Shown here one piece after another: positions 49,227 through 63,298 of a stretch of DNA of 64,000 nt (the first letter of the stretch is position 1; every line of letters begins with the position of its first letter). Source of the stretch: Candidatus Methylomirabilota bacterium (GTDB taxonomy: Bacteria; Methylomirabilota; Methylomirabilia; Rokubacteriales; CSP1-6); assembly GCA_035635755.1 (NCBI GenBank), contig DASQAK010000052.1, positions 6,236-70,235 on the forward strand. The letters run 5' to 3'. The translations under genes and the position numbers were made by a program. The notes under the pieces are model-generated. The model saw nothing but the letters and a program-made list of their open reading frames with translations, had not been told where the DNA came from and did not search any database.

Positions 49227-49563
49227 CCTGACGCCCTTTCGCTGTTCTATCTTCCGTATCCGCTCGGCTCGCTGTCCTGCTGGTCGCCTCGCTTGCGGCT
49301 GCGGCTCCTCCGGCGGGACGCGCTTTCGCTGGTCCGTCTTCCGTATCCGCTCGGCTCGCTGTCCTGCTGGTCGCCTCGCCTGCGGCTGCGGCTCCTCCGG
49401 CGGGCTGCGCCTCGCCCTGCCACATCAAACTCTTCTTGCTCACGAAGCAGATGCTGCCTCCGAGACGCGAGAGGGCCTTCTTCTCGAATTCATCGGTCGA
49501 GTTCGCGGCATCCCCCTTGTCCTCGATCTTCGCGTCAACCTTGTAGTTGCCCTTGAGGAACTC
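49192..49563 (-). CDS. small protein (123 aa) with N-terminal charged domain and 2x 29-aa Ala/Gly/Ser/Thr-rich tandem repeats
   Basis: Perfect RBS AAGGAG 7 nt before ATG. Very high GC3 in the N-terminal half. 'MPEFLKGNYKVDAKIEDKGDAANSTDEFEKK...' then repeats 'PAGGAAAAGEATSRTASRADTED'. 3' end overlaps DUF115 start by 35 nt. Missing from the obvious track reading because it lies inside a longer artefactual ORF. Confidence 0.5.
   Translation of the reverse strand, partial: EFLKGNYKVDAKIEDKGDAANSTDEFEKKALSRLGGSICFVSKKSLMWQGEAQPAGGAAAAGEATSRTASRADTEDGPAKARPAGGAAAASEATSRTASRADTEDRTAKGRQDGAGKKDRPRA
49247..49420. repeat. tandem direct repeat, 2 x 87 nt (~95% identical) inside the small ORF
   Basis: 'ccgtatccgctcggctcgctgtcctgctggtcgcctcgc' recurs with 87-nt period. 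In frame (29 aa). Confidence 0.85.
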
Positions 49564-49571
49564 CGGCATGC

Positions 49572-50240
49572 TCAGCTCCTTTTCGCGATCCGCCCGCCCG
49601 TGCTGTCGCCGTTGCCCGCGGGCGAGGCCAGGCGCCTCAGCGTGAGGAACTTCTCGGGCGGCAGACCCAGGCGAACCAGGCCCGCCACGTGCCGTTCGGG
49701 CCTTTCGAAGGTGGCGACGACGATGCCGTCGACATCGGCCATGGGCAGCTCGGAGACCGGCCGCACAGGCAGGCCCAGGAAATGGCCGCCTCCCTCCCCC
49801 GCGAAGATCCCCACCGGCTCCAGCCCGAATTCCTTGAGGGTGAGGTAGGCCAGCTCGGCCGCCTCCCCGGTTCCGCAGAGCGCGATGCGCTTCATCCCGT
49901 TCCGCCCCAGCTGCCCCATGGCCTCCCGGAGATTGTCGCGGGTCCGCCGGTAGAGCTGCAGTGAATGTCCCATGTACTCGTAGGTCAGGCGGGCCTTCTC
50001 CGTAGCGCCCTTGGCCGTGAGCATGTAGCGGAGGCGCTTGCGGGCGGAGGGCTTGCTGGAGAACTCCCGTATCTTGATGAAGCCCTTCCCGGCCAGCCGC
50101 TTCAGATACAGGTTGGTCAGCCCGAGGGCCACGCCCATTCGCGCGGCGAGGGCGCGCTGGGTCAGGGGCGCCCCCTCCTCGATGGCGGTCAGGATCTCGA
50201 GCTCGCGCTCGATGTGACGCTCGATGGCCATGGCGTTCAA
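49572..50240 (-). CDS. winged-helix transcriptional regulator with C-terminal Rossmann-like (Rex-C-like) domain
   Basis: 222 aa; 'LTQRALAARMGVALGLTNLYLKRL' wHTH; C-terminal 'KRIALCGTGEAAELA...GIVVATFERPE'. Confidence 0.55.
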   Translation of the reverse strand: MNAMAIERHIERELEILTAIEEGAPLTQRALAARMGVALGLTNLYLKRLAGKGFIKIREFSSKPSARKRLRYMLTAKGATEKARLTYEYMGHSLQLYRRTRDNLREAMGQLGRNGMKRIALCGTGEAAELAYLTLKEFGLEPVGIFAGEGGGHFLGLPVRPVSELPMADVDGIVVATFERPERHVAGLVRLGLPPEKFLTLRRLASPAGNGDSTGGRIAKRS

Positions 50241-50251
50241 TATATGAACAC
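50232..50251. promoter_or_regulatory. palindromic operator-like motif GGCGTTCAATATATGAACAC overlapping the regulator start codon
   Basis: Inverted repeat GTTCA-N5-TGAAC. Near-identical copy at 51776-51795 at the flippase start. Confidence 0.5.
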
Positions 50252-50275
50252 AGGCAGCGCGCCCGAGTCAAATTG

Positions 50276-51784
50276 CTAGGAGCTCGCTCTCAGGAAGGCC
50301 ACGAACCTCCGCGGGTCCACGAGCTCCCTGGCGTAGCGGAGATTGTCCGTCCCGGTGTGAGTCAGCCAGAGAAACCCCGTGTAGACGCCGAGGGCAAGCA
50401 CGAATCCCCCGGCCAGGGCTGCCGGCTCGGGCGCGCCGGCGGCGGCGAGGCCTTCCCGGGTCGCCTCGTTGACGGCCACGAGCACGGCGAAGCCCGTCAG
50501 GTACGCCACGGTCACCCGCTGGAAGCCGATGCCGGCCAGCTCGCGCGTCCATCGGATGAACACCCAGCAGGGGAAGATCACCATGAGCAGACGCACGGCC
50601 GCCGCCCCCGTGCCACCGAGGGTCGGAACCAGTACCACCATGGCGACAAGATAGACGGCCAGGCGCAGGAGAACGACGCGCACGAACCGTCCGTGCTGAT
50701 CCATGGCGTAGAGGATGAACTGATACGGATTGAAAGCCGTCTGGGCCAGGGCCGCCAGCACCAGGACCATGAGCGGCGCGACTGCGAGAAGGAAGCGCCG
50801 GCCATAGAGCAGGGTGAGGATGGGCTCACGCAGCGCCCAGAGGCAGAAGGCGGCCGGCACCGCGATGAAGAGTAGCCGGTCCATGGCCGCGGCGAAGACC
50901 CGCCGGCTCTCGGCCGCGGCCTCGAGCCCCGGTGTGGCGAAGAGCCGAGAGAGCCGCGACAGGAGAAGCTGGAAGGGATACTGGTTGAGCCGGCCGAGCA
51001 CTTCCCAGAGTGCCCGCGCGACCTGGTAGTACCCGGCGGCGGTCAAGCCCGCCCAGCGCGCGACGAGAACACGATCGAGAGAGTCCTGGAGCATGCCGAT
51101 GGGACTCGTGATGAAGAGCGGGCGCGCGTAGCTCCAGTAGGCCTGAAGCGTCGCGCGATCGGGACGACGCAGCGCGATGCCTCTGCGGAAGACGAGGATG
51201 TACCCGCCCACGAGGATCTCCGTGGCGCCCTCGACCACCAGGGCCGCCGCCACCCAGCGGATGTCGGGTGCCCAGATCAGCACGGTCATCGTCACCGCGA
51301 AGCGGAGCCCCTTGCCGGCCACCTCCGTGATCGCGTGGGCGCTCGCCCACTCCCGTCCCACGAAGGCGACGCTGAGGGTCGCCGCGAGATTCATCAGGAG
51401 CTGGGCGACGAGGACGAAGAGAACGACCTCGAGGGGCACGCTCGTCGGGATCACCAGGGATCCCCAGCGGGCCGCTGCGAGCACGAGGAGGAGGGCCGCG
51501 ACCTGGATCACCAGCTGGAGCGCGGCCATGGTCCCCACGCAGCGGCCGAGGTCGCCGCCTTCCGCCACCCGCTTCTGGTGCGCCTGATTCAAGCCGGGGA
51601 GCAGGAACGCGGTCAGCATCCCCACCAGGCCCATGCTGAAACCCAGGATGCCGAGGGCGTCGGGTCCGAGCCAGCGGGCGATGAGGATCGTGGTGACGAA
51701 GCCGAAGGCGCTGGCGAGACCGGTGCCGAAGAAGAGGACGACAGACTTCCTGCCGAGATTCCCCTCGTGGCTCACGGCGTTCAA
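50276..51784 (-). CDS. polysaccharide biosynthesis protein / oligosaccharide flippase (Wzx-like, MOP superfamily)
   Basis: 502 aa, ~12-14 TM helices. 'RWLGPDALGILGF' typical of PST-family flippases. Confidence 0.75.
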   Translation of the reverse strand: MNAVSHEGNLGRKSVVLFFGTGLASAFGFVTTILIARWLGPDALGILGFSMGLVGMLTAFLLPGLNQAHQKRVAEGGDLGRCVGTMAALQLVIQVAALLLVLAAARWGSLVIPTSVPLEVVLFVLVAQLLMNLAATLSVAFVGREWASAHAITEVAGKGLRFAVTMTVLIWAPDIRWVAAALVVEGATEILVGGYILVFRRGIALRRPDRATLQAYWSYARPLFITSPIGMLQDSLDRVLVARWAGLTAAGYYQVARALWEVLGRLNQYPFQLLLSRLSRLFATPGLEAAAESRRVFAAAMDRLLFIAVPAAFCLWALREPILTLLYGRRFLLAVAPLMVLVLAALAQTAFNPYQFILYAMDQHGRFVRVVLLRLAVYLVAMVVLVPTLGGTGAAAVRLLMVIFPCWVFIRWTRELAGIGFQRVTVAYLTGFAVLVAVNEATREGLAAAGAPEPAALAGGFVLALGVYTGFLWLTHTGTDNLRYARELVDPRRFVAFLRASS

Positions 51785-51795
51785 TAGGTGAACAC
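51776..51795. promoter_or_regulatory. palindromic operator-like motif GGCGTTCAATAGGTGAACAC overlapping the flippase start codon
   Basis: Second copy of the GTTCA-N5-TGAAC palindrome; first 12 nt of both genes identical (TTGAACGCC.TG). Confidence 0.5.
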
Positions 51796-51853
51796 ACCCG
51801 TCGCCGGCCGGTCAAGGTCATTCGGCGCCGGTACTGGGTCAAGTTGCGAGCCA

Positions 51854-51895
51854 GATCAACTCAGCCCTCGCCTCGGGCTGCGCCCTCAGCTCGAA
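51854..51895 (-). repeat. conserved intergenic element, copy A (reverse orientation)
   Basis: Reverse complement 'TTCGAGCTGAGGGCGCAGCCCGAGGCGAGGGCTGAGTTGATC' matches the family consensus. Confidence 0.6.
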
Positions 51896-51975
51896 CCGCC
51901 ACGCCCGAGGGAGCCAGCTTTGCCCAGCGTACGTGGGTGTACGTTGAGCGTTGCTAGCGACCGAGAACGTGGCAT

Positions 51976-52018
51976 TTCGAGCTGAGCGGCCCCGCCGCGA
52001 GGCGAGAGCTGAGTAGAA
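51976..52018 (+). repeat. conserved intergenic element, copy B
   Basis: 'TTCGAGCTGAGCGGCCCCGCCGCGAGGCGAGAGCTGAGTAGAA'. Conserved arms flank a GCGGC-CCC-GCCGC hairpin. Confidence 0.6.
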
Positions 52019-52090
52019 CTGGCGAAGCAAATTGGCCCAGTACCCGGGCTCCTTGGGCCCCACCCGTCCTCGTGATAGGCTTCATGGCCG

Positions 52091-52858
52091 ATGGGCCTGA
52101 GAAAGCTCGCGAAAAGGGTCCTCGGCGTCCAGCGTCAGCCGACGTACTACCTGCCGTGGCTGACGCGCCCTCATCTCCAGTGCGCCCTCGTGCTCAGCAA
52201 CGTCGAGTCGCGCTTCAAGGTCGGCTACAACCGCGGGAGCTTCCCGGTCTCCGTGGTCCAGTACGATGCCGACGGCGCAGTGGCGGGTCGGCACGAGGTG
52301 ACGCTGCCCGACGCGGTGGAGGCCGTCGAGCTGCCCCTGCCGTCCGCTCCGGGCGGATGCGGCTTCGCCACGGTGAGCGGCGAGCGCATCAACTCCGATC
52401 TCTACGTCACCCTCTCCGACGGCCTCGCCTATACCGCGACCCACGGTCGCGGCGAATTCATCGAGCGCTATGCGCTCCCGGGCCGCTTGCTCCTGGCCAT
52501 GATCGGCGGGCTCCTGGGACTGGCGGGCCGAGCCATTCCCGCCTTCGTTCGCCACCAGTACGCGTACGTCGGCCCCGACAGCCGCTCGCACCTGCTCGTG
52601 ATGAACCTGTCCAACGTGACGAACCGCGTCCGCGTCGTGGCCAGCTGGGAGGGGCGCGTCCTTGGCGCCCGGCTTCTGCGGCTCCCTCCCATGGGCTCGA
52701 CGCTCCTGGACATCGGGACGTTTGGCTCAGCCTCGGGCGGCACCGCCACGGAGGTGTGGAGGCTCCGGCTCGAGGGCGCGGCGTGGTTCAACCTGTACGT
52801 CGTCGGCGCGGGTGCCCGGAACCTCGAGGGGCCGCTGTCGCTGATGCATGTCAAATAG
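52091..52858 (+). CDS. hypothetical protein (255 aa), no recognisable family
   Basis: Diverse composition and high GC3; first gene of plus-strand operon. Stop overlaps the next gene's ATG by 11 nt. Confidence 0.5.
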   Translation: MGLRKLAKRVLGVQRQPTYYLPWLTRPHLQCALVLSNVESRFKVGYNRGSFPVSVVQYDADGAVAGRHEVTLPDAVEAVELPLPSAPGGCGFATVSGERINSDLYVTLSDGLAYTATHGRGEFIERYALPGRLLLAMIGGLLGLAGRAIPAFVRHQYAYVGPDSRSHLLVMNLSNVTNRVRVVASWEGRVLGARLLRLPPMGSTLLDIGTFGSASGGTATEVWRLRLEGAAWFNLYVVGAGARNLEGPLSLMHVK

Positions 52859-53561
52859 CGTCTCGGCCCTGCTCTCGGCCACGTTCTACGAGCCGGGCTA
52901 CGACCACCTCGTCGAGCTGGTGCACCAGCGCGATCCGGAGGCGCGCCGCCGGCTCGCCTCCCTCGATCTCTCCGCCTACGGCCCCGACGGCAAGCTGCTC
53001 CTCGAGCATGGCCTGGACACGCGGGAGGAGACGCTGGACCTGGGCGCCCTCCTCGCCCCCACCGCGCGCGAGCACGGGCGCGTCATGGCCGTGTTCGACG
53101 CGCGCTACGAGGAAGACGCGTTTCCCTACCGCCCCCACCACTACGCCTACGTCCATCGCGCGGGCTCCGCCACCCCGGCGCTCTACTATGCCGTCAGCGC
53201 GGCCCTCGGGGGCGTGCCCGACCGGATCGGGGACATGTCCCGCATCAACAACTTCGACACCTATGTCTTCCGTCGCGGGCCCCACGCCGCGCGGTACTCG
53301 GTCATGCTCGGCAACGTCGGCCGCTTCGCTCCCACAGAGGCGCAGGTCTTCGCCTACTACGGTGCCGAGCGCGTGGAGGAGACGGTCCCCCTCGGACCCC
53401 GAGCCCATGCCGAGGTCGCCCTCGCGCCCGAGCGCGGCGGGCAGCCCCTCACCCGCGTCGAGACCAAGTCGCTCTTCCGTCTGGCCGGATACGTGGCCGG
53501 CCGTCGGGACCCCTCGGGCGACCTCGTGCTCTTCGACCACCTCTTCACGTTTTTCAAGTGA
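52848..53561 (+). CDS. hypothetical protein (237 aa), no recognisable family
   Basis: Coding-like composition; His/Tyr-rich segment 'YRPHHYAYVHRAG'. Confidence 0.5.
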   Translation: MSNSVSALLSATFYEPGYDHLVELVHQRDPEARRRLASLDLSAYGPDGKLLLEHGLDTREETLDLGALLAPTAREHGRVMAVFDARYEEDAFPYRPHHYAYVHRAGSATPALYYAVSAALGGVPDRIGDMSRINNFDTYVFRRGPHAARYSVMLGNVGRFAPTEAQVFAYYGAERVEETVPLGPRAHAEVALAPERGGQPLTRVETKSLFRLAGYVAGRRDPSGDLVLFDHLFTFFK

Positions 53562-53588
53562 TTTTCGAGCTGAGACGTGGCCACGCAC

Positions 53589-53633
53589 TTCGAGTTGAGC
53601 AGCGAAGCTGCGAGACGAGAGCTGAATTGATTC
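53589..53633 (+). repeat. conserved intergenic element, copy C2 (partial copy C1 at 53564-53588)
   Basis: 'TTCGAGTTGAGCAGCGAAGCTGCGAGACGAGAGCTGAATTGATTC'; central CAGC-gaa-GCTG hairpin. Confidence 0.6.
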
Positions 53634-53647
53634 CGCAGGCGTGGCAA

Positions 53648-53692
53648 TTCGAGTTGAGCGGTGAAGCCGCGAGACGAGAGCTGAGTGGATTC
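53648..53692 (+). repeat. conserved intergenic element, copy C3 (partial copy C4 at 53693-53717)
   Basis: 'TTCGAGTTGAGCGGTGAAGCCGCGAGACGAGAGCTGAGTGGATTC'; central GCGG-tgaa-GCCGC hairpin. Confidence 0.6.
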
Positions 53693-53712
53693 ACGGCGAG
53701 GCGAGTGCTGAT

Positions 53713-53928
53713 TTGACCCACGGTCCCGAGCCCGAGGACGCGCTCATCCTCTGCTACTGCACCATGTTGACCGTCGGCGAGCTGCGCCGGGCCTGCGCGG
53801 CGGGCGGCTGGCCGCTGCCCGGCAAGGAGAACACCGGCCGGCTGTGCACCGGGTGCCTCGGAGACCTCCTCTACTGTCAGTCGCGATTCGAGAGGCCGCC
53901 GCGAGAGGCCCGGAGCGTCGGCCCGTGA
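53713..53928 (+). CDS. BFD-like [2Fe-2S]-binding mini-protein (71 aa)
   Basis: Cys pattern 'CYC...(35)...CTGC' resembling BFD/[2Fe-2S]-binding domains. TTG start lies inside repeat copy C4. Stop overlaps GTG of next gene (GTGA). Confidence 0.4.
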   Translation: MTHGPEPEDALILCYCTMLTVGELRRACAAGGWPLPGKENTGRLCTGCLGDLLYCQSRFERPPREARSVGP

Positions 53929-54851
53929 CGACGCGCGACGAGCTGCGCCTGCACGATGTCCCCTGTCCGCTGTGCGGGGGGAGCCGCGTCTCGCCCGTGA
54001 TGCGTGACGAGGGGTTCCATCGGATCAGCGGTCCCGGCCTCGTGGCGTGCACGAGCCTGGACCACGGCGCCTTCGGGCAGATCGTGGCCTGCGATCAGTG
54101 CGGCCTCCGCTTCCGGAGCCCGCGCGAGGACGACGCCACCATCCTCTCCCTCTACGCCGACGTGGAGGACCACGTCTACCTCGAGAACGAAACGGCGCGG
54201 GTGGCGACCTTCTCGCGCGCCCTCTCGCGCCTGGAGAGACATGTCCCCGTGCGCGGACCGCTGCTGGACGTCGGCTGCTATACCGGCGTCTTCCTCGACG
54301 TCGCCGCGCGGGCGGGCTGGCCGGTGGTGGGGCTCGAGCCCAGCCGCTGGGCCGCCAAGGCCGCCTCCGCCAAGGGGCACCGCGTGCACACGGGCACGCT
54401 CGACACGGCGCCCTTTCCCCGGGGATCCTTCGCCGTCGCCACCATGTGGGATGCCCTCGAGCACTATGCCGATCCCGTGGGCGAGCTGAGGCGCGCGAGG
54501 GATTTCGTCCGGGACGGCGGCTATCTCGTGCTGACCACGATGAACATCGACACGCTGGCCGTGCGGATGCTCAGGAAGCGCTGGCCCTGGTACATGCGCA
54601 TGCACCTGACCTACTTCACGCCCGAGACGGTGGAGGCGGCCCTCGGCCGGGCGGGCTGGCGCCTGGCCCACCGCCATGGCTACGGTCACGTGGTCACCTG
54701 GGACTATCTCCTGCTCAAGCTCGCCCCTTACTGGCACGGAGGGAGCGCGGCCGGCCGCGCGGGCCTGCGTCGGCTCGGCCTCTCCCACCGGACGCTCACC
54801 GTCGACCTCGGCGATTTCATGACCGTCTACGCGGAGAAACTGCCCGGATGA
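53925..54851 (+). CDS. class I SAM-dependent methyltransferase with N-terminal Zn-ribbon
   Basis: 'CPLCGG...CDQCGLRFRSP' Zn-ribbon. 'LLDVGCYTGVF', 'VRDGGYLVLTTMN'. Paralogous architecture to 37664..38584. Confidence 0.75.
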   Translation: MTTRDELRLHDVPCPLCGGSRVSPVMRDEGFHRISGPGLVACTSLDHGAFGQIVACDQCGLRFRSPREDDATILSLYADVEDHVYLENETARVATFSRALSRLERHVPVRGPLLDVGCYTGVFLDVAARAGWPVVGLEPSRWAAKAASAKGHRVHTGTLDTAPFPRGSFAVATMWDALEHYADPVGELRRARDFVRDGGYLVLTTMNIDTLAVRMLRKRWPWYMRMHLTYFTPETVEAALGRAGWRLAHRHGYGHVVTWDYLLLKLAPYWHGGSAAGRAGLRRLGLSHRTLTVDLGDFMTVYAEKLPG

Positions 54852-55594
54852 CCACTCGCCTCGTCGTCCTCGCCTACAACGAGGAAGCGGGCATCGGCCA
54901 GAGCCTCGCGGCCATCCACGGCCTCGGCCTTCCCGACCTCGACGTCATCGTGGTGGACGACGGCAGCACGGACCGCACGGAGGCGATCGTGCGCCAGATG
55001 AAGGCGACCGTTCCCCTCGAGCTCCTCTCCCACGAGGTCAACCGCGGCGTCGCCGCCGCCTTCGACACCGGCCTCCGCCACGCCGCCGCCATCTCCAAGC
55101 CCGGGGACTTCGTGATCACCATCGAGGGCGACGGCACCAACAGCCTCCAGGCCCTCGGCCCCATCATCTCCCTCCTCGGTCAGGGCTACGACGTCGTGTG
55201 CGGGTCGCGCTACGTCCCCGGGGGCGGCTATCATGGCTTCCCGCTCGGGCGGCGGATCTGGAGCGTAGGCGCCAACCTCGTGATGCGCTGGTACTGCGGC
55301 CTCGTGCCCGTCAAGGACTACACGCTCTTCTATCGGGGCTATCGGGCGGAGCTCCTGCAGGAGGCCTTCCGGCGCTACGGGCGGCGCTTCATCGAGGCGC
55401 AAGGATTCTTCGCCAACATCGAGATACTGGTGAAGCTCTCGCGGCTCCGGCCGCTGCGGGCGGCCGAGACTCCCGTGGTCTACGCCTACGGCGCGAAGCG
55501 CTCGGGGAGCAAGATGCGCGTGTGGCGCAACCTCAGCGAGTACCTGCGCTTCTTCGTCCGCGACTCGCGGCGGCCCTCGCGGCCCGGCTCCTGA
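54848..55594 (+). CDS. glycosyltransferase family 2 (polyprenyl-phosphate glycosyltransferase-like)
   Basis: 248 aa; 'RLVVLAYNEEAGI...DVIVVDDGSTDRT'. ATGA overlap with the methyltransferase stop. Confidence 0.8.
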   Translation: MTTRLVVLAYNEEAGIGQSLAAIHGLGLPDLDVIVVDDGSTDRTEAIVRQMKATVPLELLSHEVNRGVAAAFDTGLRHAAAISKPGDFVITIEGDGTNSLQALGPIISLLGQGYDVVCGSRYVPGGGYHGFPLGRRIWSVGANLVMRWYCGLVPVKDYTLFYRGYRAELLQEAFRRYGRRFIEAQGFFANIEILVKLSRLRPLRAAETPVVYAYGAKRSGSKMRVWRNLSEYLRFFVRDSRRPSRPGS

Positions 55595-56630
55595 GCGTTC
55601 CCGGGTCGCGGAAGAGCCGCGGATTGGTACGTATCCACTCGTAGAGCCGGCGCACGCCCGCCTCCGGCGAGGTCCTCGGCCGCCAGCCGAGCACGCGGGC
55701 CGCCTTGCGAATGTCGCTGACGTACACCTTCTGGTCTCCGGGCCGCCAGTCGTCGTAGCCGACGGGCACGCGACGGCCCAGCAGCTCCCCGAGCATGTCG
55801 AGCAGCTCGAGGAGGGACATCGTGCTCGCGGGCCCGCCGCCGATGTTGAAGATCTCTCCGGCCGCGGCGTCGATGCGCCGGTAGGCCGCGCGGTAGGCGC
55901 GCACGAGGTCGTCGACGTACAGCACGTCACGGACCTGGCGGCCGTCGCCGAAGATGGTGATGGGACGGCCGTAGACGGCGGCCAGGGTGAACCAGGCGAC
56001 CCACCCCTGGTCCTCCATGCCGAACTGGCGCGGCCCGTAGATGCAGGACTTGCGGAAGACCACGGTCCGGAGCCCGTAAATGCGGCTGTAGTCCCGCACG
56101 TACTGATCGCCCGCCCCCTTCGAGCAGCCGTACGGCGAGTGGAAGTCCAGGGGAAACGACTCGGGGATACCTCGAGGCCAGCCCTTGAAGACGTGGCGCG
56201 TCCCCGCCCGCCGCGTCCGCACGCCTTCGAGCCCGCCATACACCTTGTTCGTGGACGAGAACACGAGGGCGGGCCGACGGCGCGAGGTCCGGATGGCTTC
56301 GAGGACCTCGAGGGTGCCGCCCGCGTTGACGGCGAAGTCGTCCCGGGGATTTGTCACGGAGGTGGTGACGGCGGTTTGGCCGGCATTGTGGATGACGAGG
56401 TCCGCCTCGCTCACCAGCTCGGAGAGGCGCCGGCGTGGCCATCGGATGTCTCCCCGCACGATGCGCACGCGACGACCGTGGGAGGCGGCGAGCCAGCGGG
56501 CATTGGCCTGGGCGCCCGGACGCGAGAAGTTGTCGAAGACGGTGACCCGGGCGCCCGAGCGCAGGAAGCCGTCGGAGACGTTGGAGCCGATGAAGCCTGC
56601 GCCGCCGGTCACGAGCACGCGTGTGGGCAC
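55533..56630 (-). CDS. NAD-dependent epimerase/dehydratase (extended SDR; CDP/dTDP-sugar epimerase-like)
   Basis: From GTG with GGAGGA RBS. '[13 protein letters not shown]', 'YGCSKGAGD', 'SCIYGPRQFG'. Convergent ~60-nt overlap with the plus-strand GT2 3' end. Confidence 0.8.
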   Translation of the reverse strand: MPTRVLVTGGAGFIGSNVSDGFLRSGARVTVFDNFSRPGAQANARWLAASHGRRVRIVRGDIRWPRRRLSELVSEADLVIHNAGQTAVTTSVTNPRDDFAVNAGGTLEVLEAIRTSRRRPALVFSSTNKVYGGLEGVRTRRAGTRHVFKGWPRGIPESFPLDFHSPYGCSKGAGDQYVRDYSRIYGLRTVVFRKSCIYGPRQFGMEDQGWVAWFTLAAVYGRPITIFGDGRQVRDVLYVDDLVRAYRAAYRRIDAAAGEIFNIGGGPASTMSLLELLDMLGELLGRRVPVGYDDWRPGDQKVYVSDIRKAARVLGWRPRTSPEAGVRRLYEWIRTNPRLFRDPGTLRSRAARAAASRGRRSAGTR

Positions 56631-56643
56631 CGGGATCCTCCGT

Positions 56644-58269
56644 TCAGACGGTGTTTCGGCGATACAGGCGGAAGACGTGATCGCCACCTGCCCGCACCGT
56701 CTCGACAAGCGTGAAGTGCCGGGCCAGGAGCGTGTCGATCCGGGCCACCAGCTCGACGTAGGGGCGGCGCCCGCCGTAGAACTGGAGGACGTTCGGCTCG
56801 ATCACGGCAAACCGCGCGTCGCTCCCCAGCCACCCCTCGAGCTCGTCCGCGCCCCACATGCCAGCCCGATGGTAGCGCTGCTTGTCGCGTGAGCTCGTGA
56901 ACACCATCAGGTGCTGGTGGAATTGCCGGAGGTAGCTCTGCCGGCCCGCGAGATGGAGGGGCAGCGGGTCGCCCAGCAGAAACACCCGTCGTTCGCCGCT
57001 TGGGATGACGGCGGCGATCCGGGCGGCCACCGCGCGCAGCGCGGGGATCTCGGCCTCCGCGGGCACGATGCGCCGCGGCAGGTACGGCGAGCGATGGACC
57101 CACGGCGAGACGATGAGGGCGAGAAGGAAGGCGGCCGCGACGAGACGACGAGGCGTCGCGGACAGCTCGAGTCGCCCCCACGCCTCCGCGAAGAGGCAGC
57201 CGATGACGATGACGAGAAGGGGGGCAATGGCCCCCACGTACGCGTAGCTCTGCTTGACGTACGGCCCCACGATGACGAACTGCCAGGCCACGAGGTACCA
57301 GAAAAGCCAGAAGGTGAACCACAGGCCCGTGGGTCGCCACGGCGCCGTCGAGATCCGCCCCTTCCACGTCCGCAGTGCCTCGAGGGCGCTCAGTCCGACG
57401 AGGGCGACCATCCAGATCGCATAGCGGCGCAGGAAGAAGGCGAAGGACTTTGCCATGCCGGCGAGCCGCCCGAGCGGGCTCGGATCCCATGGGATGTCCG
57501 TGTAGTCGGAGACCCACACCGCGGCGGGATCTTCCATCAGGTTATGCCAGGAGTAGTAGCCCATGGGCTCGACCCACGCGCGCACGATCGGCATGTACGC
57601 GAGCATCTTCCAGTGCTGCCGGTCCCACACGAAGAAGAGGAGGGGGATGGAGGCGGCCACGGCTACCAGGCCGGCCCGTCGCGCCAGGGAGCCCGCGCGA
57701 AACACCGTGTACGCGAGGGCGAACGGAATGGCCGGCCAGTAGTGGGGCTTCACGAGGAAGAGGGCGGAGAAGACGGCCATGGCGAGGAGATCGCGCCCGG
57801 GCCACGCTGTACAGAACAGGATGTAGATGGCGAGGAGCGTAAGCGCGGCCACGAGGGGCGAGAAGTGCGCGGTGGCGAAGTAGCCCATGACGAGGCCGTG
57901 GGTGCAGAACAGACCGCACGCCGCCACCCCCGCCAGCCTCCCGCCCCAGCGCGCCGCCAGCGCGAAGATCAGGACGACCACGAGCGCCCCTACGAGGACG
58001 GCGAGGAGCCGGGCCACGAGCAGGCTGGGTCCGAAGATCGCCTGGGAGAGGCCGAAGAAATAGAAGGGCAGGGGCACCCACTGCCCGGTCATCTCGTCCT
58101 GGTAGAGCGTGATGTCGCCCCGGACGAGCAGGGTGCCCAGGGCCAGATACTCGGCCTCGTAGTCATGATCCACGAGCACCCAGGCGAGCAGGACGGCCAC
58201 GATCAGGAAGGCGATCACACAGCAGGCGAGCAGCATCGGGCCGCCTGACGCCGGCGCGCGGCCGGTCAT
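56644..58269 (-). CDS. GT-C-fold membrane glycosyltransferase (PMT/ArnT-like), paralogue of 38593..40188
   Basis: ~541 aa, many TM helices; shared motif 'LYQDEMTGQWVPLPFYFFG'. Start ATG 58269 or 58236. Confidence 0.6.
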   Translation of the reverse strand: MTGRAPASGGPMLLACCVIAFLIVAVLLAWVLVDHDYEAEYLALGTLLVRGDITLYQDEMTGQWVPLPFYFFGLSQAIFGPSLLVARLLAVLVGALVVVLIFALAARWGGRLAGVAACGLFCTHGLVMGYFATAHFSPLVAALTLLAIYILFCTAWPGRDLLAMAVFSALFLVKPHYWPAIPFALAYTVFRAGSLARRAGLVAVAASIPLLFFVWDRQHWKMLAYMPIVRAWVEPMGYYSWHNLMEDPAAVWVSDYTDIPWDPSPLGRLAGMAKSFAFFLRRYAIWMVALVGLSALEALRTWKGRISTAPWRPTGLWFTFWLFWYLVAWQFVIVGPYVKQSYAYVGAIAPLLVIVIGCLFAEAWGRLELSATPRRLVAAAFLLALIVSPWVHRSPYLPRRIVPAEAEIPALRAVAARIAAVIPSGERRVFLLGDPLPLHLAGRQSYLRQFHQHLMVFTSSRDKQRYHRAGMWGADELEGWLGSDARFAVIEPNVLQFYGGRRPYVELVARIDTLLARHFTLVETVRAGGDHVFRLYRRNTV

Positions 58270-58273
58270 GCCC

Positions 58274-59005
58274 TCAGGCCTTGCGGGCAACGAACACGTT
58301 GAGGGTGAAGGTTCGCGCGAGAGGCCGCCAGTGACCGAGCCAGCCCTCCAACTTCCGCGTGGCGGGAAAGACATTGTGCACGAATGGCGGGAAGCAGCCC
58401 ACGGTAGTGACGCGGCACGCGCGGAATCCCGCCGCCTCGAACCCGCGGCACACGCGGCCCGGCCATACCCGCACGATGCCGCGCTCGACCCGCCAGCTCC
58501 GTCGGGGGTGCATGGCCAGATGGACGTACCACTGGGGGTTCCAGGGATTGGGCTCGAGGAAGACGGCCCGGCCGGCCGCTCTCAGACGCTCGAAGGCGCG
58601 CGTCGCCACCGCGCGGACGTCGGGCACGTGGTGGAGGATGTGGCCGCCCACCACCGCGTCGAACTCCCGCCCTCTCACGCGAGAGAGCGTGGTGGCGTCG
58701 TCCTCGACCAGGGTGAGGCTCCCCCGCTCCGGATGCTCGGCGGTGAGTCGCTCGAGATACTCGATCGATCGTCGCGAGATGTCCACCGCGGTGACGCGGC
58801 AGCCCCGGTCGAGCAGGGGCAGCGTGAAGCGGCCCCCGGAGGCGCCCAGCTCCAGGATCCGCTCGCCCCGCCGCGGGTCCACGGCCTCCAGGAAGCGATC
58901 GAGCACGAACGCGAAGTACGGATTCGCCTGCTGGAAGTTCTCGTCGTACTCGTCCGCGGTGGCGTCGTAGAACCGACGCTGCACGTCCTGCCAGTCAGAA
59001 GGCAT
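58274..59005 (-). CDS. class I SAM-dependent methyltransferase
   Basis: 243 aa; 'ILELGASGGRF', 'GRAVFLEPN'. Confidence 0.75.
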   Translation of the reverse strand: MPSDWQDVQRRFYDATADEYDENFQQANPYFAFVLDRFLEAVDPRRGERILELGASGGRFTLPLLDRGCRVTAVDISRRSIEYLERLTAEHPERGSLTLVEDDATTLSRVRGREFDAVVGGHILHHVPDVRAVATRAFERLRAAGRAVFLEPNPWNPQWYVHLAMHPRRSWRVERGIVRVWPGRVCRGFEAAGFRACRVTTVGCFPPFVHNVFPATRKLEGWLGHWRPLARTFTLNVFVARKA

Positions 59006-59214
59006 CGGCCGTTATGGTAGGCTATTCGGCGTCGTCATTCCAGAATTTTGAGGACCACGCTCCGACACGAGGTGCCACGAAACCTTGGAATCGCCGGACG
59101 ATGCCGCGCGGGTGATCGCCGTGGCCACCGTCGTGATCGCGCTGGTCTTCGTCGCATACGCGTGGAGCGGAGCCGACCTCTGCCTCTGGTGCGCGGTCCT
59201 CGGCCGGTAGCCGC
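59006..59214. promoter_or_regulatory. divergent intergenic region (lower GC) between minus-strand methyltransferase and plus-strand methyltransferase operon; contains a possible 41-codon small TM ORF (59084-59209, TTG start, 'CLWC')
   Basis: AT-richer stretch 'cattccagaattttgagga'. Small ORF 'LESPDDAARVIAVATVVIALVFVAYAWSGADLCLWCAVLGR' is hydrophobic. Speculative. Confidence 0.2.
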
Positions 59215-60159
59215 GTGAACCTCTACGACGATTTCCGCCCCGATGTCGTCGCTCTCCTCAAAGACCAAGAGGCGAAGCTCCCCGCCCCCGACGGGCAGGC
59301 GCGGAGCGGTGACAGGCTGGGCCCGCTCGGCCGCCTGCGGAGCCTCGCCGCCCTCTACGCGCTGGGGGCGCAGGTCAAGACGGGTCTGCACCGGCGTCTG
59401 GTCCACGCCGATCTCCGGCTCGGGTGGTTCGAGGAGTTCCAGAGGTACTGGATGGGCGAGCTGGGCTGTCGTCCCATCCACCCTCACGACTTCTACTTCC
59501 TCTCCGGCGTCTATCGCCAGCGCGCCCAGACCCTCTACTTCGAGCACCTCGAGCGCCCCGACCTCGCCTCCGACGACAAGCACCTGGATGCCTGGCGCGA
59601 TTCGCGCATGGTCTCGTACCTGTTCCTGCACGCCTATCGCCTCGCCCTTTCCCCCCTCCGCGTGCATCCCTTCGCCCGCTTCATCCCGCGCGGCGGCCGC
59701 GTGGCCGAGTACGGGTGCGGCGCCGCCCCCATCGTGACCGCCCTCGCCCGTCACTACCGCCACCTCGATCTCCAGCTGGTGGGCGCCGACATCCCGCACC
59801 TGCTCTTCCACTACGCGCGCTGGAAGTTCCGCGGGGACCGCTTCGTGAGCATGGTGCCGATTGTCCCGAACGACGACACGCCCCTGGCGGGGGAGTACGA
59901 CACGATCTTCTGCCTCGAGACCTTCGAGCACCTGCCCCGCCCGGTCGCCGTGGTCGAGCATCTCTACCGCGTGTTGAAGCCCGGCGGCTGCCTCGTCTTC
60001 GACTATGTCCGCTCCGACGGCACCGGGCTCGACACGGCCGCCGCGCTCCGCGATCGCGTCCCCGCCCTCGAGCTCATCCTGAGGCGCTTCGACATCGTCC
60101 AGGGCCGCGTGACGACGGAGGGCGTCCACGTCGACGCCACCGTGGCGCGGAAGCGCTGA
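59215..60159 (+). CDS. class I SAM-dependent methyltransferase with ~130-aa N-terminal extension
   Basis: 'VAEYGCGAAP' motif I, 'IFCLETFEHL', 'LKPGGCLVF'. Confidence 0.65.
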   Translation: MNLYDDFRPDVVALLKDQEAKLPAPDGQARSGDRLGPLGRLRSLAALYALGAQVKTGLHRRLVHADLRLGWFEEFQRYWMGELGCRPIHPHDFYFLSGVYRQRAQTLYFEHLERPDLASDDKHLDAWRDSRMVSYLFLHAYRLALSPLRVHPFARFIPRGGRVAEYGCGAAPIVTALARHYRHLDLQLVGADIPHLLFHYARWKFRGDRFVSMVPIVPNDDTPLAGEYDTIFCLETFEHLPRPVAVVEHLYRVLKPGGCLVFDYVRSDGTGLDTAAALRDRVPALELILRRFDIVQGRVTTEGVHVDATVARKR

Positions 60160-62352: not shown

Positions 62353-62434
62353 AAAGGCCGGCTATCTCGGCGCTGCTATGAGGGACCCCGCAGGCGGCTC
62401 AAAAAGGTCCCGATGCGAGGCGGCGCCCCGCGGT

Positions 62435-62486
62435 TCGAGGTGAGCGGCGGCCCCCGGCCGTCGCGAGACGAGAGCTGAGTTGATTC
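62435..62486 (+). repeat. conserved intergenic element, copy D
   Basis: 'TTCGAGGTGAGCGGCGGCCCCCGGCCGTCGCGAGACGAGAGCTGAGTTGATTC'. Followed by an AACGTAC-tttctg-GTACGTT hairpin (62495-62514) that echoes 'CGTACgtgggtgTACG' at 51927-51948. Confidence 0.6.
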
Positions 62487-62566
62487 GCAGGTGAAACGTA
62501 CTTTCTGTACGTTGAACCCGCGGCCGAGGGCGCCAACGAAGCAGATGGGCCTTTCTCAGCCGCCTG

Positions 62567-63298
62567 CTAGCTCAGCTTTACTTTGTCTCCGACCAGCGTC
62601 GCCAGGCGGACCATGGCCAGGATCTTGATGACCACCCACGATGGGTCGAACTCCGAGCGCCGGACGCTGAACTTGGGGCTCGACGGGTAGGCGTGGTGGT
62701 TGTTGTGCAGGCTCTCCCCGCCCGTGAGCCAGGCGAGGAGTCGGATGTTCGTGCCGGAGTTGTTCATGAAGTTCTTGCGTCCCCACCAGTGGCCGAGACC
62801 GTTGATGGAGGGGGCGAGGACGAAGACGTACAGGACGAGGTGCACGGCGACCACGAAGATTCCCCACGCGGGTCCGAGCACGAGCATGGCGAGGGCGAGA
62901 CCGATGATGCCCCCGAGGGTGCCCTTGGAGAAGATCCGCCGGTCCCACCAGTCTTCCTTGATGTCCTTGGCCCAGCGGGTCAGGGTCTCCGGGTTCCGGG
63001 CCTCGCGCACGTAGTAGTAAACGTTCCAGAGCTGGATGCGCCAGAAGCCGTGCACGAGAGGGCTGTGGGGATCCTTCTCGGTGTCCGTGAAGGCGTGGTG
63101 CTTGCGATGCACGGCCACCCACTGACGACGGTCCTGCCCCGTGGTGATCCACAGGATGATGCGGAAGAAGAAATCCGCGATGGGGTGCAGCGTGAGGGCG
63201 CGATGCGCGAGACCTCGATGCAGGTACACGGAGGTCGCAACCACCGCGCCTTGCGTGACCAGGACCGTGACGGCGACAGCCAGCAACGCTTTCAGCAC
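62567..63298 (-). CDS. fatty acid desaturase-family membrane protein (di-iron, three His boxes)
   Basis: 243 aa; His boxes 'HRGLAH', 'HRKHH', 'HNNHH'; hydrophobic N-terminus. Confidence 0.7.
   Translation of the reverse strand: MLKALLAVAVTVLVTQGAVVATSVYLHRGLAHRALTLHPIADFFFRIILWITTGQDRRQWVAVHRKHHAFTDTEKDPHSPLVHGFWRIQLWNVYYYVREARNPETLTRWAKDIKEDWWDRRIFSKGTLGGIIGLALAMLVLGPAWGIFVVAVHLVLYVFVLAPSINGLGHWWGRKNFMNNSGTNIRLLAWLTGGESLHNNHHAYPSSPKFSVRRSEFDPSWVVIKILAMVRLATLVGDKVKLS

Follow-up and report, generated by a model that had tools for sequence, protein, structure and literature searches.

The repeats described here, found in the window (the whole 64,000-nt stretch of DNA that was analysed, G+C 69%, from contig DASQAK010000052.1 of a Candidatus Methylomirabilota bacterium), very probably belong to a previously undescribed interspersed family specific to the Rokubacteriales, of the same kind as the repetitive extragenic palindromes (REPs), the bacterial interspersed mosaic elements (BIMEs) and the REP doublets forming hairpins (REPINs). 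The window carries five full and two partial copies of an element of about 36–52 nt, in three clusters that are referred to below as AB, C and D. The structural traits of REPs are found in the family, namely a 36-nt core with 14 canonical pairs, 92% paired, conserved mismatches and a predicted hairpin fold, and so are their traits of distribution, with at least 132 copies at no fewer than 72 loci, dispersed and mostly extragenic, while the AB element has those of BIMEs and REPINs: inverted cores, a hairpin spanning the whole unit, and absence as a unit from the related loci L074, L077, and L079. The dispersal is irrespective of the function or the orientation of the neighbouring genes, across several genomes. 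Text searches of the literature returned no paper linking Rokubacteria to such repeats; the founding Rokubacteria paper reports 8–17% non-coding DNA along with numerous transposases, and nowhere uses the words “repeat,” “intergenic,” or “palindrom.”

The presence of the copies in the window is far above chance. A profile built from 85 copies of other genomes recovers, with nhmmer, the five full copies (E-values from 5e-16 to 1.6e-8) and the two partial ones, and nothing else credible in the 64 kb. The full copies are copy A (51854–51895, minus strand; a 34-nt hairpin variant plus tail, E = 2e-11), and, all on the plus strand, copy B (51976–52018, E = 5e-16; preceded by a GTGG head at 51968–51971), copies C2 (53589–53632, E = 2e-12) and C3 (53648–53691, E = 2e-13), and copy D (62434–62485, E = 1.6e-8), the latter a 52-nt block with a long-stem variant forming a 44-nt hairpin. 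The partial copies are C1 (53564–53575, 5′ arm only, E = 0.13) and C4 (53694–53717, 3′ arm only, E = 0.002). When the window is compared to its shuffles, the 5′ arm pattern has 6 matches versus 0.96 expected (none of 100 shuffles reaching 6), the 3′ arm pattern 6 versus 0.12, and the 3′ arm plus tail 3 versus 0.00, and the arm patterns are confined to 51.8–62.5 kb of the window. The number and the positions of the copies had been predicted correctly, from the sequence of the window alone (the original prediction). The same prediction placed all copies in intergenic positions bracketing a plus-strand operon, and this holds in part: cluster C sits inside the operon, between two of its genes.

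Comparisons with closely related genomes reveal orthologous sites that are free of the elements. Across about 14 kb aligned at 93–96% nucleotide identity, L074 and L083 (retrieved loci are designated by L and a number) show large differences from the window at no place other than the three element-bearing spacers. L074, L075, and L076, in which a neighbouring protein is 97% identical, align with window positions 49412–59716 at 93–95% nucleotide identity, in three gapless blocks, with breaks exactly at the elements. One example is the AB site, where 227 nt of the window (51823–52049) correspond to 11 nt in L074, and where the element is missing as a unit from the orthologous spacer of L074, L077, and L079. 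Another example is the C site, where 152 nt (53562–53713) have no counterpart in L074. Relatives possess at this site a stop/start overlap, TTCAAATGACC, the stop of the gene for a 237-aa protein in L074 overlapping the next start (AAATGACC), and the C insertion is located exactly at this overlap, with TGA on both of its sides in the window. As AB and C are also missing from the more distant L077 and L079 (about 81% nucleotide identity), parsimony places these insertions in the window's lineage. A third example is the D site, for which homologues of the adjacent PMT_2 gene served for comparison, homologues of the adjacent desaturase gene (82–83% identity) not being syntenic at this site. Here L083 (95–97% nucleotide identity, and 95–96% in the sequences flanking the site) has 45 nt versus the 209-nt spacer of the window. 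In L084 (87%) and L085 (79%), a D-type element occupies this site but the 52-nt core block is missing from it, so that TTCGAG...TTGATT is a separable indel module, and gain or loss of the 52-nt core is independent of the element that carries it. The repeat of about 45–50 nt originally recognized thus does exist as such a module, but larger repeated units, described below, exist as well. Overall, these alignments point to the three element clusters as recent insertions, not conserved operators or leaders, and insertion differences between nearly identical populations show recent activity of the family.

These comparisons also bear on a role that had been suggested for the copies, that of operator sites for the neighbouring winged-helix regulator (HTH_24; HTH for helix-turn-helix). 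The position of A and B in a divergent promoter region and the strongly conserved sequences of the arms would be in agreement with such a role. However, in L074, L075, L076, and L079 the same regulator and flippase are encoded side by side, the HTH_24 and flippase genes being separated by a 99-nt spacer that contains no element, which rules out an operator or leader role specific to this operon. Elements are also found at dozens of unrelated loci per genome, and the asymmetry of their sequence, with its G·A and G-U pairs, favours folding as a single strand over recognition as a duplex. The operator proposal is now extremely improbable.

As to the wider distribution of the family, one genome per species (GTDB) was scanned with a pattern combining both arms; the counts are lower bounds. 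At least 72 loci match the core pattern and, among the matches listed, 68 originate from 7 metagenome-assembled genomes (MAGs) labelled Candidatus Rokuibacteriota or Methylomirabilota, with three of the MAGs carrying at least 16–18 loci each. A relaxed pattern recognizes at least 132 copies in 542 kb (the window and the 72 loci together), versus none in reversed-sequence controls. Of the other four loci, L034 and L057 are probably chance matches, located within called genes and without the conserved flanks of the family. L045 and L069, with labels other than Rokubacteria, carry typical element flanks. In the case of L069 (VAYJ01000222.1, “Actinobacteria bacterium AC_55”), the flanks nearly duplicate those of L039 (QHSC01000029.1, Rokubacteria AR4, of the same soil series), and this contig is probably mis-binned. 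In the case of L045 (CAVVDB010000003.1, a 1.17-Mb contig of “uncultured Chloroflexia”), where a typical core and one end of a D-type element are present, the label may be wrong, or else the repeat family has crossed phyla. The window itself is rokubacterial; a protein encoded beside the elements is 97% identical to a Candidatus Rokuibacteriota protein. No copies were found in a scan of 2.9 million viral contigs.

The genomic context of the copies was assessed with a crude gene caller based on G+C content at the third codon position (GC3). Most copies are intergenic, even though coding sequence makes up about 78% of the DNA. In spacers between co-directional genes, 41 copies are in sense and 35 in antisense orientation (16 versus 12 for isolated copies), and convergent and divergent spacers hold 11 and 12 copies, respectively. 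The 104 genes flanking copies match 188 Pfam families, none with more than three members, and no glycan families are among the leading ones. The genes located between copies encode housekeeping functions, such as the E1-beta and E2 components of pyruvate dehydrogenase, NuoA, TauE, and acyl-CoA dehydrogenase, and the gene flanked by inverted copies in L030 encodes an amidohydrolase. The copies are linked neither to glycan loci nor to the direction of transcription. The association with glycan loci proposed from the window alone is not seen when the element is followed genome-wide in Rokubacteriales, and the original prediction had itself named genome-wide REP sequences with no link to glycan loci as the observation that would speak against it; this is the situation now found.

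The core of the element was characterized from 132 copies from the window and the 72 related loci, of which 85 distinct copies were used for pairing statistics. It is an imperfect GC-rich palindrome of about 36–40 nt (exactly 36 nt in 87 of the 132 copies), 5′-(GTGG)CAGU-UC[GA]GCU[GA]GCSGC-NNN-GCSGC[GA]GGC[GA]GR-GCUG-(GUNGAUC), with positions numbered as T1 C2 [G3 A4] G5 C6 T7 [G8 A9] G10 C11 S12 G13 C14 - N3 - G18 C19 S20 G21 C22 [G23 A24] G25 G26 C27 [G28 A29] G30 R31. The 5′ and 3′ arms pair with each other, through Watson-Crick pairs, two tandem G·A/A·G mismatches and several pairs of the G-U type, into a single imperfect hairpin of about 18 pairs, with the outer helix lengthened by four pairs (CAGT/GCTG). 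The 14 canonical pairs are 92% paired, and the tandem mismatches, in a CGAG/CGAG context, have all eight of their G and A bases invariant in all 85 copies. The covariation of the central hairpin, claimed originally from a handful of copies, is real. The S12-S20 pair is G-C in 49 copies, C-G in 31 and A-U in 5, and the outer pair C6-G26 is replaced by U-A in 3 copies and by G-C in 2; altogether, both sides have changed at four pairs, and the covariation score of 0.138 is reached by none of 500 shuffles (0.069), remaining at or below 0.041 with partners slid. The accompanying picture of invariant arms surrounding a central hairpin needs to be revised: the arms are not unpaired, but make up the outer portion of that hairpin. 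The loop is GNA in 42 of the 85 copies, and the foot of the hairpin is directly preceded by GTGG in 66 of the 132 copies, with GCCG (24 copies) and CCCG (13 copies) found in other subfamilies.

The two strands of the core differ in their predicted folding. As RNA, the plus strand of the consensus folds (ViennaRNA) at −23.6 kcal/mol (z = −2.9), exactly into the core hairpin, in 88% of the ensemble, whereas the minus strand (−10.9 kcal/mol, z = −0.2) has a fold no more stable than those of shuffles. In all 85 copies, the greater stability is that of the plus strand, with RNA and DNA parameters alike. According to these models, the two invariant tandem G·A mismatches and the several G-U pairs stabilize the hairpin on the G-rich strand only, and this asymmetry points to folding as a single strand rather than to recognition as a duplex.

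A very stable plus-strand RNA hairpin with covarying pairs, along with the sense orientation of B, C, and D relative to the adjacent plus-strand genes, could be taken as indicative of a cis-acting structured RNA (a leader, a riboswitch-like element or a small RNA) that regulates the glycan/flippase operon of the window. We now consider this very unlikely. The same operon carries no copy in relatives that are 94–96% identical, all three clusters being missing from their locus, and thus the proposal of a leader or a small RNA of the glycan operon finds no support there. Furthermore, copies adjoin 188 unrelated gene families, show no orientation bias (41 versus 35 overall, 16 versus 12 for singletons), and match no Rfam family, a scan of the window against Rfam 15 at gathering thresholds returning no matches. 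The compensatory variation, in turn, is also expected for a mobile palindrome, and so is not, on its own, an indication of a functional RNA. Of the two options that were offered originally, a structured RNA motif or a REP-like element, the second describes well what is found, a dispersed intergenic palindrome present in both orientations and in mosaics, while the locus-specific RNA or operator does not.

A cellular function of a more general nature is a different matter, as the family may have been domesticated by its hosts and kept for some function of the hairpin, possibly in addition to mobility. Roles reported for the REPs and BIMEs of Escherichia coli include protection of mRNA 3′ ends, attenuation of transcription, and binding of nucleoid proteins or topoisomerase. 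The near invariance of the arms and of the G·A positions across 7 MAGs, the stability of the hairpin on one strand only, and the tolerance of copies within housekeeping operons would be in line with domestication, while the lack of orientation bias relative to transcription and the variable presence between nearly identical relatives are not, making such a history possible but rather unlikely.

BLAST comparisons of the window with the other loci reveal repeated units of about 150–220 nt, and the cores are modules in mosaic elements of 125–220 nt that have inverted repeats at their borders and contain 0–3 cores each, which are frequently placed in another hairpin's loop. Cores are found singly, as tandems with a period of 45 or about 80 nt, as inverted doublets, and inserted at the apex of other palindromes, within the loop, with preferred spacings of 40–49 and 80–89 nt for direct pairs and of 60–79 and 110–119 nt for inverted pairs. 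The AB composite (51828–52047) is a long imperfect palindrome of about 216–220 nt, with inverted ends GGTACTGGGTCAAGTTGC and GCAAATTGGCCCAGTACC, that folds as one long hairpin (−139.9 kcal/mol, z = −11.5). Its cores A (minus) and B (plus) are inverted, with starts 116 nt apart, making it an inverted doublet like those of REPINs and BIMEs. It is 88% identical to elements of other MAGs, L068 4168–4383 and L051 2101–2322, located in unrelated gene contexts. At its apex is the hairpin CGTAC-GTGGGT-GTACG (51928–51943), the “empty” state of a position that holds 1–3 cores elsewhere: between the GTACG arms of AB-type elements there is one core in L035, L060, and L061, and there are three, in a 45-nt tandem, in L072, while the central hairpin has no core in the window, L068, L051, and L038. 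The D composite (62390–62567, plus strand, 178 nt; −96.6 kcal/mol, z = −4.7) has inverted ends GCAGGCGGCTCAAAAAGGTCC.GATGC and GCAGATGGGCC.TTTCTCAGCCGCCTGC and contains a comparable hairpin, ACGTAC-TTTCT-GTACGT (62497–62513); hairpins of this type beside B and D were both noted correctly in the original prediction. D-type ends are found in 22 loci, with 12 pairs having both ends in the retrieved stretch, about 100–230 nt apart. One and the same MAG holds a D-type element with a core in its loop (L059 7024–7195) and another with a tetraloop instead (L059 3168–3308). In the C composite (53562–53715, plus strand), an outer core is split into the C1 and C4 arms, which enclose two complete cores, C2 and C3. 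Such split-core architecture is found elsewhere too, with one inner core in L047 and L041 and with two in L036, as in the window. A fourth context is present in other loci, the core following a CCCTCTCCCC...GGGGAGAGGG hairpin.

This composite structure raises the possibility that the units of 125–220 nt are classical miniature inverted-repeat transposable elements (MITEs), moved in trans by an insertion sequence (IS) of the DDE type with matching ends, the core being a passenger or an internal module expanding through slippage and gene conversion. Both AB and D indeed possess inverted ends of about 20–27 nt, the D-type end pairs are always 100–230 nt apart in the retrieved DNA, AB is missing as a whole unit from relatives, and short direct repeats may be present, TGA at C and 12 nt in L052. 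At the same time, there is no consistent target-site duplication, and none at AB; no full-length element with the ends of the composites is present in the retrieved DNA; one and the same core is flanked by unrelated sequences in four contexts or more, and its gain or loss can take place without the rest of the element; and palindromy runs through the whole of the composite, as in REPINs, not its tips only. On balance, we regard a classical MITE origin as unlikely, about as much so as domestication.

It seems much more likely that the family is of the REP/BIME/REPIN kind, and a mechanism can be proposed on this basis. The modules would move or be copied as single-stranded hairpins, through a structure- and sequence-specific enzyme. 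By analogy with known systems, the best candidate for this enzyme might be a Y1 HUH transposase, of the REP-associated tyrosine transposase (RAYT) or the IS200/IS605 type, encoded elsewhere in the genome, an assignment that we put forward tentatively. The lack of target duplication at AB is as expected for the chemistry of RAYT-type transposition. Slippage would be the simplest account for the growth of the 45-nt tandem arrays. Any effects on the flanking glycan genes would be by-products, such as a stable RNA hairpin when a copy is transcribed in sense, or the uncoupling of genes at C, and the effects on neighbouring genes are probably incidental.

A few observations weigh against this interpretation. 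Searches of all open reading frames (ORFs) in the 542 kb, using phmmer with the E. coli RayT and an IS200 TnpA sequence, produced no RAYT or IS200 gene (nothing better than about E = 1.7–2), the test being an insensitive one on a small and biased sample of DNA; as RAYTs are usually present in single copy, this absence is weak evidence. The GTGG head is found on only half of the copies (66 of 132). The composites have long terminal inverted repeats, a feature more often seen in MITEs that depend on DDE transposases. No consistent target-site duplication emerges from the comparison to empty sites, with TGA at C and the 12-nt repeat in L052 as candidates and with none at AB. The direction of change, insertion versus deletion, at the hairpin-loop sites would follow from parsimony only. 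Finally, the arms are very highly conserved between species and the RNA fold is strong on one strand, leaving room for a host function.

A further idea, speculative and in our estimation improbable, more so than a MITE origin, is that the core of about 50 nt is itself an autonomous unit of mobility, among the smallest known, with the tandem G·A pairs serving as a recognition platform for a dedicated enzyme or binding protein, and that it integrates preferentially into the apical loops of extruded hairpins, including those of other cores. If true, this would explain the cores in GTACG loops, the split cores enclosing other cores, and the D-type elements with and without a core, and it would represent a new mode of targeting for bacterial miniature elements.

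How does the family compare to known systems? REPs are imperfect stem-loops of 35–40 nt, with functionally important mismatches, organized in BIMEs (PMC3479197), and defined by a GT(A/G)G head and an imperfect GC-rich palindrome (PMC2817692). Binding and cleavage of REP hairpins by RAYT need both a mismatch in the stem and a 5′ GTAG head (PMC3479197), and the initial definition of RAYT-REP systems covered Gammaproteobacteria only (PMC2817692). The Rokubacteriales family is like the REPs and BIMEs of Enterobacteria, Pseudomonas, and Stenotrophomonas (associated with TnpA_REP) in its GC-rich imperfect stem-loop of 35–40 nt with conserved mismatches, in its high copy number, in being extragenic, lineage-specific and present in both orientations, in its mosaics with linker motifs and inverted pairs, and in the GT(A/G)G-type head (GTGG) found in half of the copies. 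It differs in that no RAYT was found in the 542 kb, that the head is missing in half of the copies, that two invariant tandem G·A mismatches are present rather than a bulge, that modules are nested in the loops of other hairpins, and that the hosts belong to an uncultured phylum-level lineage (Methylomirabilota/Rokubacteriales). REPINs, the REP doublets forming hairpins in Pseudomonas fluorescens (PMC3337134, PMC3116915), resemble AB in consisting of two inverted cores and a spacer, in folding into one long hairpin, and in being present or absent as a unit, but they measure about 89 nt versus about 216 nt for AB, which has additional conserved terminal segments beyond the cores. In the Rokubacteriales family, moreover, elements differ in their number of cores, and cores are arranged in direct tandems as often as in inverted doublets.

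Other types of bacterial repeats share some but not all of these features. The subterminal palindromes of IS200/IS605 elements, which act on single-stranded DNA and produce no target duplication (PMC3479197), are similar in hairpin length and in strand specificity provided by mismatches, while the Rokubacteriales copies are not accompanied by a tnpA or tnpB gene, reach much higher numbers and occur in both orientations. MITEs such as Correia/NEMIS are similar in their size of 100–250 nt, terminal inverted repeats, intergenic insertion and strain polymorphism, and differ from the Rokubacteriales composites, which are palindromic throughout, have a separable inner module, and show no consistent target-site duplication. 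The BOX elements of Streptococcus pneumoniae have the structure boxA-boxB(n)-boxC, with complementary end modules and from none to several inner units of about 45 nt, are intergenic, and are mobilized by an enzyme that is not known. The Rokubacteriales elements share with them the A-B(n)-C modularity and intergenic dispersal, with no sequence relationship, but here the inner unit is a strong hairpin, which is also found alone and in several host elements. The invariant tandem G·A pairs and the modular, loop-nested build are unusual details.

The implications of these findings are several. A false lead is removed, as the motifs are not regulators of a glycan cluster and should be masked in annotation of Rokubacteriales intergenic regions and in searches for RNA motifs. 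An apparently undescribed REP/BIME-like family is documented in an uncultured soil lineage with large genomes, and it could be used as a strain-typing marker. It could also present a natural experiment on the tolerance of repeats within operons, for example at the gene pair split at 53562–53715, and the tandem G·A pairs along with the loop nesting offer a concrete substrate for finding the responsible enzyme.

The gene pair just mentioned consists of the gene for the 237-aa protein and a Cys-rich ORF of 71–73 aa (..LCYCTML..C..C..), which overlap as ATGA in relatives and are separated in the window (53559–53928). A comparison of frames with L074 6711–6926 suggests that TTG at 53713–53715 (plus strand), at the right insertion junction, is the new start of the 71-aa ORF (53713–53928), and would replace the ATG of the ancestral ATGA overlap, with a GAGG-rich arm located upstream. 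The C insertion thus appears to uncouple two genes that are translationally coupled in relatives. The C-type composites of L023, L036, and L047 also start right after (A)TGA, and C-type elements may have a preference for, or a tolerance of, stop/start junctions.

The genes around the elements in the window form a glycan cluster, encoding a Polysacc_synt flippase, methyltransferases, an epimerase, two PMT_2 glycosyltransferases and two conserved proteins without Pfam matches. The HTH gene cluster is followed downstream by the divergent promoter region that contains A and B. Relative to the plus-strand genes next to them, B, C, and D are oriented in sense, and the D composite is located between the convergent PMT_2/LmeA and fatty-acid desaturase genes. 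The two proteins without Pfam matches, of 255 and 237 aa, are encoded by adjacent genes (52091–53561). The 237-aa protein has more than 400 homologues at E ≤ 1e-10, mostly of about 236 aa, the named ones being rokubacterial, and in relatives both genes are part of the same cluster as genes for radical-SAM/B12-binding, MptE-like and GFO_IDH_MocA proteins. These two proteins are conserved unknowns of the glycan pathway. The three insertions are clustered within 11 kb, with none in the first 50 kb of the window, and this may be due to chance or to the genes of the glycan cluster being less tightly packed.

The last base of the D element belongs to the complement of the desaturase stop (62567–62569; CTA, which is TAG on the minus strand), while the stop is TGA in relatives that have no D element or have 4 extra nt. 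In more distant relatives, dinB, not the glycan cluster, follows the desaturase gene, placing D at a synteny boundary.

Several known motifs resembling parts of the element were considered and rejected. Among Rfam hits at E up to 10, a single one overlaps a copy, Hammerhead_II with 15.8 bits (E = 8), where the threshold is 37, and the CUGANGA...GAAA core is absent from the consensus. A sigma-54 promoter in the TGGCAG-N-GCTG flank has its GG/GC spacing off by 2 nt; a CRISPR array would agree with a 36-nt repeat but not with spacers of only 9 nt; and GTTGAAC resembles the GTTRRRY core site of an integron attC, but there is no inverse core and there are no cassettes.

Two observations concern loci other than the window. 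A second repeat family is represented by a CCCTCTCCCC-N3-5-GGGGAGAGGG hairpin, often duplicated, that is located directly 5′ of one subfamily of cores (with the head GCCGCAGT) and is found in L001, L014, L018, L026, L030, L039, L040, L042, L043, L045, and L048. In L052 (4930–5140), three tandem cores with a 45-nt period are present upstream of a pyruvate dehydrogenase E1-beta gene, with a perfect direct repeat of 12 nt, GGCGCTAGTCCT, on either side. This repeat includes the ribosome-binding site and the start region, and may have arisen as a long target duplication or as a scar of recombination.

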